From assembly GCA_039193915.1 (NCBI GenBank), contig JBCCWH010000001.1, positions 7,668 to 71,667 on the forward strand: DNA of 64,000 nt. The letters are read 5' to 3'. This document shows positions 753 through 58,916 of this stretch, piece after piece (the first letter of the stretch is position 1; each line of letters opens with the position of its first letter). The stretch is from Planctomycetota bacterium (GTDB lineage: Bacteria; Planctomycetota; Phycisphaerae; Phycisphaerales; Phycisphaeraceae). The notes under the pieces are model-generated. The model made no database searches. It was not told the origin of the DNA and worked only from the letters and a program-made list of their open reading frames with translations. The position numbers were made by a program, and so were the translations under genes.

Positions 753-1664
753 CTACCGCTGTACACCCGCGACTTGCCGAACCGGCAGCCCTGCGTCCGC
801 CATCGCCTGCTTGGCCTGCGCGATCGTGTACTCGCCGAAGTGGAAGATGCTCGCCGCCAATACCGCGTCGGCGCGGGTCTGTTTGAGCACATCGATCATG
901 TGCTGCGGCGACCCGCACCCGCCCGACGCGACGACGGGGACATCCACCGCGTCGGCGATGAGCTGGGTCACCTCGATGTCGTAGCCGTCTTTCGTCCCGT
1001 CGCCGTCCATTGATGTGAGGATGATCTCACCCGCGCCGAGTTCGACGACCTGCCGGGCGTACGTCAACGCCTCGACGCCGACCGGCTTGCGTCCGCCGTG
1101 GGTGTGGACCTCGAAGACGAAGGCGGATGGGCGATCGGGGATGGCCGAGGGATCGTGCAACGCTTCGGCCGGCAGCCATCCGCCATCGGACATCGGCCAT
1201 CCGCCATCCGGCGGCAACGCCCGGCCCGACGCATTGAAGTGCTCGACAAAAGCCGCCGGGGTCACACGTTTGGGGTCGATGTTCACCACTGTCGCGCACG
1301 TCCCGAACCGCTTGGCCGTCTGCGCGACGATGTCGGGCGTCATGATCGCGGCGGTGTTGATGCTCACCTTCTCCGCCCCCGCCTGGATCAGCCGGGTCAC
1401 ATCGTCGACCGTGCGGATCCCGCCCCCGACCGTGAAGGGCATGAAGCACCGCTCGGCCACCTGCCGGACCATGTCGTAGGTGATGTCGCGCGCCTCATGG
1501 CTGGCGGTGATGTCGAGAAACACCAGTTCGTCTGCCCCCGCCGCGTCGTACTGCGCGGCGATCTCGACCGGGTCCCCCGCGTCACGCAGGTCGACAAAGT
1601 TGACGCCCTTGACGACGCGGCCAAGGTTCACATCAAGACACGGGATGACGCGGTGGGTAAGCAT
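753..1664 (-). CDS. hisF: Imidazole glycerol phosphate synthase cyclase subunit with a ~45-aa internal insertion
   Basis: [73 protein letters not shown] at 1664. Confidence 0.96.
1122..1210. repeat. Inverted pair of degenerate 7-mer arrays inside hisF
   Basis: gatgggc/gatcggg/gatggcc (1126-1146) versus agccatc/cgccatc/ggacatc/ggccatc/cgccatc (1174-1208). Confidence 0.75.
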
Positions 1665-1679
1665 CACCAAAGTGTAGAG

Positions 1680-1711
1680 TAAAGCACGGGGGTGGCCACC
1701 CCCGTGCTTTA
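1680..1711. repeat. REP palindrome, left of the HUH transposase gene
   Basis: Perfect 32-bp palindrome taaagcacgggggtggccacccccgtgcttta; it contains the transposase stop codon. Confidence 0.9.
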
Positions 1712-2332
1712 GGTGCCCTCGAAAAGGAAACCCCTCCCCAGCATCCAAACCGCCGCACCCTGCTTCGCATGCCCCTGGATGTAACGGGCAGCATTGACCT
1801 GATGCCCCCGATCCCGGATCGGCTCGCACTTGGGCCGATCCGCCCAAACCTGGCTTGCGGGCTTGAGACCTGCGGCCGAGAGTGCGAACGACGCATGCCG
1901 ACGCGCTCGGCCAAGATAGTGCCGCGGCGCCGGGTCGCGCCCGTCGCTTAGCGTGACGCTATTGAGCCGTTTCAAATCTGCTGCCTCAAGCTTTGGGAAC
2001 CTGGCCAATAGGTGGAAGTGGTTGGACGCGACTGCGAGCACCACCGCGTCAACCTCATCGGACATTAGCCTCTCCACCATCGCCCGGCATAGACAATCGC
2101 GCTGCGCATCATCCAAAACAACCGGCGGATGTGAGAGTTTCGCCTTCCTCTCCGCAAAAACGGGTTCCCACACACCTGCCGGCGGCGGCTTACGGTAGTC
2201 ACCCTCGACATGCTCGCGGTGGCGGAACGTCCGAAACCCGCGCGGGTCGCCACGCAGCCAAGTGCCGTATGTCGATCCGACGCAGTGATACCAGTTGTGC
2301 CACGCGTTTGGATTGGGGCCGCCTGCAGGCAT
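1709..2332 (-). mobile_element. REP-associated tyrosine transposase (RAYT/TnpA-REP-like, Y1 HUH family)
   Basis: N-terminal YHCVGSTYGTWLRGDPRG, HUH motif SNHFHLL, C-terminal ARYI tyrosine; flanked by near-identical palindromes. Confidence 0.82.
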
Positions 2333-2349
2333 ACGACTCTCCTTGCATC

Positions 2350-57369: not shown

Positions 57370-57642
57370 GGACGGGCTCCAAAGATTGCCGGGGGAATAG
57401 GGTGTGGCAAGGACAAAGTGTCCCGACCACGTGCATGCGTGAGTTGAGTCAATGCAAGAACGGCGATTCGCTACAATCGATCGGGAAGAATCTAAGCCCG
57501 GGCCTACGCGCTGTCAATCAAACAACGAACAGGACTTCGCCACAACACCGATCCTGTACGGACTCACAGGAAACCGAGAAACAAGTTCCACCTCGCCTAT
57601 CGCTCGCAACACACAACCTCAAACGAATCCCGGACACCGCCC

Positions 57643-58836
57643 ATGCCCAAGCGCGACCCCTACGCCCCGTCCCCCGATGACCGCTTCACCTTCGGGCTCT
57701 GGACCGTCGGCAACCCCGGGGCCGACCCCTTCGGCGGGCCCACTCGCCCACGGCTCTCGCCCGCCGAGACCGTCGACCTGCTCGGCGAAGTCGGCGGCGA
57801 TTCAAGGGGGGTCTACGGCGTCAACTTCCACGACAACGACCTCATCCCCATCGACGCCACCGACGCCGAAGCCGCGCAGATTAAACGCGACTTCCGCGCC
57901 GCGCTACGCCGCAACAAGCTCAAGGTCCCGATGGCGACGACCAATCTGTTCAGCGACCCCGTCTTCAAGGACGGCGCGTTCACCAGCAACGACGCCGAGG
58001 TCCGCGCCTACGCGATCCAAAAAACGATGAAGGCCATGCTGCTGGGCAAGGAGTTCGGCGCGAAGACCTACGTCTTCTGGGGCGGCCGGGAGGGCACCGA
58101 GTCCGACGCGACCAAAGACCCCGTCGTCGCCGTCAAACGGTTCCGGGAATGTATCAACTACCTCTGCGCCTTCAGCAAGGCCGAGAAGCTGAACTACAAG
58201 TTCGCCTTCGAGGCCAAGCCCAACGAGCCGCGCGGCCACATCTACATGGCCACGACCGGCAACTACCTCGCCTTCATCGAGACCCTCGACGACCCATCGA
58301 TGTGCGGCGTGAACCCCGAGTTCGCGCATGAAACGATGGCCGGGCTCAACTTCGTCCACCACGTCGCACAGGCCCTGGAAGCCGGCAAGCTCTTCCACAT
58401 CGACCTCAACGACCAGGAGATAGGCCGGTACGATCAGGACTACCGCTTCGCATCCGTCAGCTACAAGGCCGCGTTCTTCCTATGCAAGCTGCTGTGCGAC
58501 TACAAGTACAAGGGCATGAAGCACTTCGACAGCCACGCCTACCGGCAGGCCGACCGCGACGAGGTCAAGGCCTTCGCCGCCGGGTCGATGCGCTCGTGGA
58601 AGATCCTCGAGGCCAAGGTCACGAAGTTCAACAAGGACCGCAAGATCCAGTCCCTGATCCGCCAGATCAACCGCGGCGAGCAAGCCGCCGCCACGAAGCT
58701 CGCAAAGAAGTACAGCAAGACCAACGCCAAGAAACTCCTGGCCGCCCCACTCGACCGCGAGAAACTCGCCAAGCGCAAACTGCCATACGAGCAGTTGGAT
58801 CAACTAACGATGGAACTGCTGCTAGGCGTGCGGTGA
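57643..58836 (+). CDS. xylA: Xylose isomerase (short, class I)
   Basis: FTFGLWTVG, FHDNDL, FKDGAFT, WGGREG, EAKPNEPRG, VNPEFAHE, GKLFHIDLN. Confidence 0.96.
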   Translation: MPKRDPYAPSPDDRFTFGLWTVGNPGADPFGGPTRPRLSPAETVDLLGEVGGDSRGVYGVNFHDNDLIPIDATDAEAAQIKRDFRAALRRNKLKVPMATTNLFSDPVFKDGAFTSNDAEVRAYAIQKTMKAMLLGKEFGAKTYVFWGGREGTESDATKDPVVAVKRFRECINYLCAFSKAEKLNYKFAFEAKPNEPRGHIYMATTGNYLAFIETLDDPSMCGVNPEFAHETMAGLNFVHHVAQALEAGKLFHIDLNDQEIGRYDQDYRFASVSYKAAFFLCKLLCDYKYKGMKHFDSHAYRQADRDEVKAFAAGSMRSWKILEAKVTKFNKDRKIQSLIRQINRGEQAAATKLAKKYSKTNAKKLLAAPLDREKLAKRKLPYEQLDQLTMELLLGVR

Positions 58837-58843
58837 GGGGACG

Positions 58844-58916
58844 TTAGCGGTTAGCCATTCGCTTTTAGCTGATTGCTGAGTGCTGAGTGCTGAGTGCTGA
58901 TTGCTGATTGCTGATT
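58844..58916. repeat. 7-mer tandem array after the xylA stop
   Basis: ttagcgg/ttagcca/ttcgctt/ttagctg/attgctg/(agtgctg)x3/(attgctg)x2. Confidence 0.9.

Follow-up and report, generated by a model that had tools for sequence, protein, structure and literature searches.

What are the short repeat arrays that mark gene ends along a stretch of DNA from a marine planctomycete, and why does one pair of them enclose a small gene between two ketoacyl synthase genes? The stretch, here called the window, comprises 64,000 nucleotides (positions 7,668 to 71,667 of contig JBCCWH010000001.1, assembly GCA_039193915.1; G000:C1:7668-71667 in our numbering), and its host genome, G000, has a size of 3.4 Mb and is 88% complete. 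A preliminary description of the window reported degenerate 7-base arrays at seven loci, G/T-rich after stop codons and C/A-rich at start codons, and proposed that pairing of these arms places a stop codon beside the start that follows it. The arrays and their pairing are real and extend across the genome. We incline to the view that each pair of 7-base arrays marks the two termini, left and right, of a small selfish element, the full form of which, about 410–550 bp, carries a gene for a four-helix-bundle protein.

Four-helix-bundle genes between inverted arms

The filled cassette of the window lies on the plus strand between the ketoacyl synthase genes KS1 (10292..11596) and KS2 (12041..13390), in the order G/T-rich arm, gene, C/A-rich arm. 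The stop codon of KS1 adjoins the left arm (11598..11633), which was recovered by array search, stem search and folding, and there follows a gene with a GTG start that encodes a protein of 120 aa (11676..12038) and has a GC content of 56% compared with 68% in its neighbours. The product matches PF05635 with 116 bits (cut-off 33.8) and TIGR02436 with 117 bits (cut-off 24), and it is similar to PDB 2GSC, the XCC0516 pentamer (E 1e-23). The ATG of KS2 falls within the cassette, 2 nt past the stop codon of the four-helix-bundle gene, and the right arm (12045..12076) encodes a 10-residue N-terminal extension of KS2. This extension recurs in the relatives G002 and G003, whereas the KS2 N-terminus is short at the unfilled sites of the same genus.

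As the preliminary description anticipated, orthologous junctions differ in cargo. Among the 20 of 23 KS1-KS2 loci that were scoreable, a PF05635 gene is present in three (one of them armless), another gene in four and no cargo in 13. The other gene, found in the same genus (L031, L035, L036 and L038), spans about 820–920 nt. The best named match of the window protein, at 72% identity, is from a Phycisphaeraceae genome and occupies the same junction. One contig from three DNA runs (85% likeness), which are otherwise dominated by other organisms, covers positions 11161-12223 without differences; it probably derives from the source sample and is hence not independent.

In G000, seven of eight PF05635 genes lie between complementary arms, one pair having period 6, and the six other armed genes are surrounded by called open reading frames (ORFs) rather than by rRNA. 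At two of these no ATG intervenes between the arm and the downstream Pfam domain that directly follows it. Counting KS2, and a further site for which support is weaker, the cassette supplies the start codon of the downstream gene at four of the seven armed sites. The survey was extended to 41 genomes, where 92 of 93 PF05635 matches were examined, three of them truncated and one split fragment being omitted; 61 of the 89 scoreable genes passed a fixed arm test and five further genes show strong inverted repeats with weaker periodicity. Many of the armless copies form one clade, including seven at one common site. Its representative in G000, at G000:C38:14878-15183, belongs to this site shared by seven genomes and is possibly domesticated.

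Arm unit type follows the PF05635 protein tree, which was built by a quick method. Distances between units and distances between proteins are correlated at 32 non-orthologous sites (rho 0.31–0.39), and in each of 20 resamplings none of 500 permutations reached this value, a result showing that the arms accompany the gene. The arms are also widespread: all ten named near-full-length homologs, from Nitrospirota, Acidobacteriota, Chloroflexota and Planctomycetota, carry inverted arms (scores 11.5–32.5, weakly periodic in three), and nine of them lie away from the KS site; an eleventh, partial match is left out of this set. Over the 41 genomes, array counts obtained with two degenerate patterns built on G000 rise with the number of PF05635 copies (rho 0.68), kin not being independent, and genome G004 has 13 array matches and zero PF05635 matches.

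A second protein is packaged in the same way. GxxExxY (PF13366) is classed in the accessible text of PMC3424549 as a PD-(D/E)XK family of unknown function. Seven GxxExxY genes occur in G000 (contigs C42, C50, C97 and C115), six of which lie within strong inverted arms with a spacing of 8–10 bases, the arms of the seventh being weak; these arms, too, sit after stops and before starts. Arrays of GxxExxY-type 8-base units occur at further sites (C40, C55, C65 and C97), and among copies examined in relatives 18 of 20 have arms. The same packaging of two unrelated proteins favours a class of elements over a mutational quirk of the host. With its nuclease fold, GxxExxY may be considered a candidate for mobilisation.

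Heptamer arrays in the window and the genome

All seven array loci reported for the window were verified, and six unit types were confirmed: GGATGGC, GGATTGC, CTTGAGG-like, GATGTKC, CGGGTTT-like and GCTGAKT, with GATGTKC serving two loci (18668/18560 and 47789). Complementary arm pairs occur at four loci and one pair surrounds the PF05635/TIGR02436 gene, as stem search and profile match established. The reported beginning of G/T arms at stop codons holds at 11598, 18671, 19409 and 58843. The location of C/A arms on or just before start codons holds only at 4671 and 47789; those at 12047, 19249 and 18560 are downstream of in-frame ATGs (12041, 19255 and 18576), and are thus N-terminal coding sequence with the start codon within the loop. 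Nor do all arrays lie at gene junctions, since the pair at 1119-1210 is in frame within hisF. Compared with shuffled sequences, two pilin hairpin pairs fold well (z -4.2 and -3.5), the filled cassette marginally so (z -1.9) and the hisF pair no better (z -1.1).

Genome-wide, 146 period-7 segments were found in G000, compared with 1, 3 and 2 in three block shuffles and with 9, 32, 19 and 5 segments for periods 5, 8, 10 and 11; periods 6 and 9 yield 96 and 73 segments, which are taken to be mostly codon-phase repeats. After removal of three homopolymers, a complementary partner was detected to the right of 35 of 73 G/T arms and to the left of three, and to the left of 42 of 67 C/A arms and to the right of three, compared with 5 of 715 random control windows. 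An independent stem search yielded 73 period-7 hairpins, including a few homopolymer or other-repeat stems, with the G/T arm first in 66 and the reverse order in seven, some of which represent the gap between two adjacent elements; non-periodic stems show no such bias (619:580). The system is genome-wide, polarised and paired and is not accounted for by plain slippage, in support of the earlier judgement that slippage hardly explains it. The single polarity that had been ascribed to the transcript also holds genome-wide, but a G/T arm followed by a C/A arm is its own reverse complement, and the polarity is thus strand-symmetric and uninformative about the transcript. The units approximate a loose consensus, R-T-K-K-N-G-G, and are linked into a chain in which neighbours differ little.

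Position relative to stop codons is likewise non-random. Genes of G000 were called with a purpose-made hexamer caller, for which starts are uncertain. Among stop-side arms outside genes, 29 of 37 begin between -8 and +12 nt from a stop, where 11–20% would be expected, and 36 of 72 start-side C/A arms end at most 30 nt before an in-frame ATG. An in-frame ATG upstream of the C/A arm was seen for 14 of 72, compared with 13 in two control frames combined; this excess is modest, so that the location of starts inside stems is based on individual loci backed by orthologs or profiles and not on a genome-wide rule. The hairpins are flanked by co-directional genes in 31 cases, divergent in six and convergent in four, eight are intragenic and 24 unclassified, and the junctions match the background of 1900 co-directional, 429 divergent and 409 convergent gene pairs.

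Intragenic arrays number 31 of 143 and lie inside 21 ORFs, two of those counted being N-terminal and at least one probably due to chance. In the window, hisF (753..1664, minus strand; TIGR00735, 339 bits, over the cut-off) is intact and carries an in-frame heptamer hairpin in a loop that is hypervariable in an alignment with 23 relatives. Its G/T arm of GGATGGC units (1175..1210, minus), found by the array scan, is translated, and the degenerate C/A partner (1119..1150, minus) was found by stem search and folding. The insert is matched in one of the 23 relatives (G023, of another genus) and is missing from all 13 same-genus copies, a distribution suggestive of transfer of either the gene or its loop. 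Six other array-bearing ORFs, compared with five relatives each, we take from their motifs, rather than from a profile scan, to be priA, mutS, recJ, mnmE, murD and miaA. In priA, mutS, recJ and mnmE some of the relatives have an empty loop where others have a hairpin, mostly of other units; murD carries variable arm-like inserts in all relatives compared, and the miaA comparison gave no comparable region. In an 8-base family of G002 and G005 the loop sequence is common to the priA and mutS sites, indicating that whole hairpins are copied between loci. Units containing TAG are absent from the 31 intragenic arrays and present in 29 of the 112 others, as expected if the arms are translated. In the mutS of G003 (L126) the reading frame shifts within the heptamer hairpin insert, owing either to a genuine disruption of the gene or to an error of assembly. 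At G000:C19:9429-9680 a Y1 (HUH) transposase domain with a 25-bp perfect inverted repeat lies within an open frame of 1270 aa, the downstream part of which is presumably a valyl-tRNA synthetase, to judge by resemblance, and the domain is a possible in-frame insertion.

The two empty hairpins that fold well flank a prepilin-like gene on the minus strand (18674..19255; N_methyl motif, weak TIGR02523). On its upstream side a G/T arm starts at the pilC stop (19385..19409, minus; array search, stem search and folding) and the C/A arm of ACCCGAA units lies in the prepilin leader (19217..19249, minus; array scan). On the other side a G/T arm of GATGTKC units (18639..18671, minus) directly follows the stop of the pilin-like gene and, by ortholog comparison, the C/A arm of ACATCGC units (18530..18560, minus) lies in the N-terminal leader of a gene whose start is ATG 18576; this ATG recurs in relatives with its GGAG site, whereas the ATG past the arm does not. 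At the pilC-pilin junction eight junctions have arms that differ in unit, several units being used and left and right changing in concert, and arm complementarity is higher for a junction's own pair (11.4) than across genomes (6.7), a difference reached in none of 2000 permutations. The own right arm is the best partner of the left arm in only three of 19 cases, because genomes share units. Covariation is weaker at the pilin-next junction (10 of 2000 permutations).

Lone arms occur at three loci. A C/A arm of ATCCGCA units (4628..4671, minus; array scan) ends on the ATG of a sensor kinase gene (4629); different units are present there in G001, G002 and G005 and none was seen in eight more distant relatives. 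Several distant relatives (L157-L167) have a -10-like box about 6 nt before the kinase ATG, a leaderless layout, and in the clade of the window (4625-4740, minus) about 55–80 nt, including the C/A arm, lie between a similar box and the ATG. Another lone C/A arm (47789..47818, plus; array scan) ends on the truD ATG, and the ilvE-truD spacer also contains a non-periodic palindrome (47718..47772) where relatives have the left arm. Full pairs with other units are found there in three of 14 relatives (G001, G002 and G023); by this comparison lone arms can be decayed pairs. The third, a G/T arm of GCTGAKT units after the xylA stop (58843..58916, plus), was not seen in five of five relatives. Non-periodic palindromes, at 47718-47772 and 58922-58955, adjoin two of these lone arms, and relatives carry other palindrome families at both junctions. 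Further downstream (59063-60511, plus), an ORF has a thioredoxin-like end at TGA 59273; the frame continues with two codons and a cysteine, after which comes an ORF of 399 aa at 59312, an arrangement which we assume from the motif to be a candidate UxxC selenoprotein or read-through gene.

Origin of the arms

If the paired arrays are the ends of an element, the fixed polarity would be its own left-right structure, which is the same on both strands. Gene-less forms would then be likely to occupy the remaining sites; hairpins without a gene are found at junctions irrespective of how the flanking genes are oriented, and also in frame within leaders and variable loops. Movement may occur at the DNA level via a single-strand hairpin. 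The sites at stops, starts and loops could reflect short matches between unit and target, the arms often being in register with the stop codon, and insertions would survive only where the host gene still works. After insertion both arms were probably rewritten together, by slippage and template-switch copying or by re-targeting by later elements, and such joint rewriting would explain the unit swaps around a kept interior.

Several results weigh against this interpretation. The left arm is not G/T-rich in 15 of the 61 armed PF05635 genes, and that composition is thus clade-specific. The correlation of unit with protein is evidence of shared descent, not of recognition, and we know of no catalytic activity of PF05635. 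No mobilising enzyme was identified in the 88% of G000 available, nor any reverse transcriptase match (PF00078). The KS site is filled in another family too, so that filled sites can be old. In the 57 gene-less hairpin loops of G000 no remnant of a four-helix-bundle gene was found and protein matches were no better than E 0.016; these loops are nearly all unique, one palindrome being common to two loci. No movement was observed, near-identical copies at two sites being absent from G000, and no target-site duplication was clear by eye, the degenerate arms blurring the element ends. Finally, 16 of 19 pilC-pilin junctions, armless ones included, retain a GAATCRT motif while both arms change unit, for which insertion of a unit, taken simply, does not account; arms are also rewritten in place. 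A search between heptamer arms revealed no transposase gene. Y1 transposases were considered as mobilisers of the heptamer arms and rejected, there being six PF01797 matches, several with palindromic flanks and none with period 7.

It is unlikely, though it deserves weighing, that the hairpins are kept for a role in RNA, whereby RNase III cuts the stem and so separates cistrons, or silences read-through where the start lies in the loop. Such a role could draw on Coxiella, where the stem of an rRNA intervening sequence contains heptamer repeats, the first of which is cut by RNase III in vitro, as the available part of PMC4990558 reports. It would also agree with the complementarity maintained across genomes at pilC-pilin and with the start of most stop-side arms at stops. 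However, cutting would destroy the message at the in-frame hairpins of priA, mutS, hisF and murD, co-directional junctions are not preferred, and hairpins are rapidly gained and lost among close relatives. Moreover, stem mismatches on the sense strand comprise 24 G-U and 39 A-C (p=0.08, in the direction opposite to a G-U excess), so that nothing shows tuning for RNA pairing. RNA processing could be a side effect if the arms belong to a selfish element. The bridge from stop to following start, as first proposed, by which cargo would enter or leave operons harmlessly, is very improbable. Filled and empty states do exist and half of the start-side arms end close to an in-frame ATG, but at the three intergenic pairs of the window the stem encloses the start codon, which removal of the interior would delete, and it does so likewise at four of the seven armed genes. 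Convergent, divergent and intragenic pairs are common, junction orientation equals the background and the G-U excess is lacking; this part of the preliminary description is not supported.

Host mutation alone, that is 7-nt polymerase slippage with fold-back template switching, might make the hairpins in place and trap four-helix-bundle genes as passengers. The unique empty loops, which often look like host spacers and several of which we read as resembling host promoters, the chain of neighbouring units and the change of both arms around a kept interior speak for it. Yet we judge it a rather poor candidate, because it leaves unexplained the arms of 61 of 89 PF05635 genes, the tracking of protein clade by unit at unrelated sites, the distinct 8–10-base arms of GxxExxY genes and the 66:7 polarity, which contrasts with 619:580 for non-periodic stems. 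It is also improbable that an Avd-like protein acts with an unlinked reverse transcriptase to write short repeats on both sides of a DNA site, in the manner of telomerase, although strand-symmetric polarity and arms around native DNA would result and complementary arms around ancestral interiors would be explained. The Avd model NF033474 matches the window protein (E 2.9e-06) at 27.6 bits, far under its cut-off of 80, and the accessible part of PMC10053308 also mentions similarity to Avd. Neither the PF00078 match that this would call for nor a template RNA was identified in the incomplete G000.

The selfish element may have wider implications, which we put forward tentatively. PF05635 elements, with units of 6–8 bases, and GxxExxY elements, with 8–10 bases, would constitute a cross-phylum class of mobile DNA with periodic inverted arms, each protein recognising and propagating its own arm code; they would hijack host starts, place hairpins without a gene in essential genes and explain both the rRNA intervening sequences that bear ORFs and the bacterial heptamer excess. 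If true, this unites the function of S23p/PF05635, the origin of such intervening sequences and the excess of polarised heptamers in many bacteria, and the match of unit to clade offers a direct binding experiment. Core enzymes gain N-terminal extensions and surface loops from the arms, which also mislead the annotation of start codons.

Comparison with known systems

In the literature no publication was found that connects either PF05635 or GxxExxY with paired arms of repeats in a context other than rRNA, with subscription coverage incomplete and supplements excluded. The closest build is that of the ORF-bearing intervening sequence of Coxiella burnetii 23S rRNA which, in the available text of PMC4990558, encodes S23p, a protein of the same family, has a similar length of 428–444 nt and carries terminal inverted repeats that form a stem, with heptamer repeats at the 5' end. 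The G000 cassettes also carry an S23p ORF between terminal inverted repeats. They differ from that account in lying at protein-gene junctions, in that both arms are arrays and in that gene-less forms greatly outnumber filled ones; not being within an rRNA gene, the cassette is not a member of the 23S rRNA intervening sequences despite its like build.

Other candidates were set aside. REP/REPIN-RAYT systems do not apply, none of the six PF01797 matches having period-7 arms, and the diversity-generating retroelement Avd, for which the score is under the cut-off and no PF00078 match occurs in G000, extends to a four-helix-bundle relationship only. Of the characteristics of MITEs, terminal inverted repeats are present in the 73 hairpins and a shared internal sequence is not, loops being unique except in one 8-base family of relatives that shares them. 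Rickettsia palindromic elements and intragenic MITEs are small palindromes inserted in frame within housekeeping genes, and such inserts occur in G000; according to the part of PMC10969869 at hand the Rickettsia elements measure some 150 bp and encode a conserved peptide, whereas those of G000 have periodic arms, variable units, mostly unique loops and a filled form.

Two repeat systems share the placement of the arms. The TAACTGA direct repeats of Beggiatoaceae form arrays of C/A type just before starts, with reverse copies after stops and a patchy distribution, as in G000; they were read as regulator binding sites, and the accessible part of that report mentions neither paired arms nor a cargo gene, the words 'four helix', 'S23' and 'intervening' being absent (MacGregor 2015, PMC4679880). 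In Xanthomonas (GGGAATC) and Nostoc (GGGGA(C/T)T) heptamer arrays form convergent pairs, 70–75 per Xanthomonas genome, with the G-rich arm at most 50 bp from a stop in sense or upstream of a start in antisense, the same polarity as in G000 (Rehm et al. 2015, PMC4692102, as far as its available text goes). Arrays of 7 bases, convergent pairs and a G-rich arm after stops all recur in G000. The repeats of Rehm et al., one unit per genome, were read as G-quadruplexes, with no link to mobile elements in the text available and without the word 'helix' in the main text (PMC4692102), whereas in G000 many units co-occur and many of them are without G-runs.

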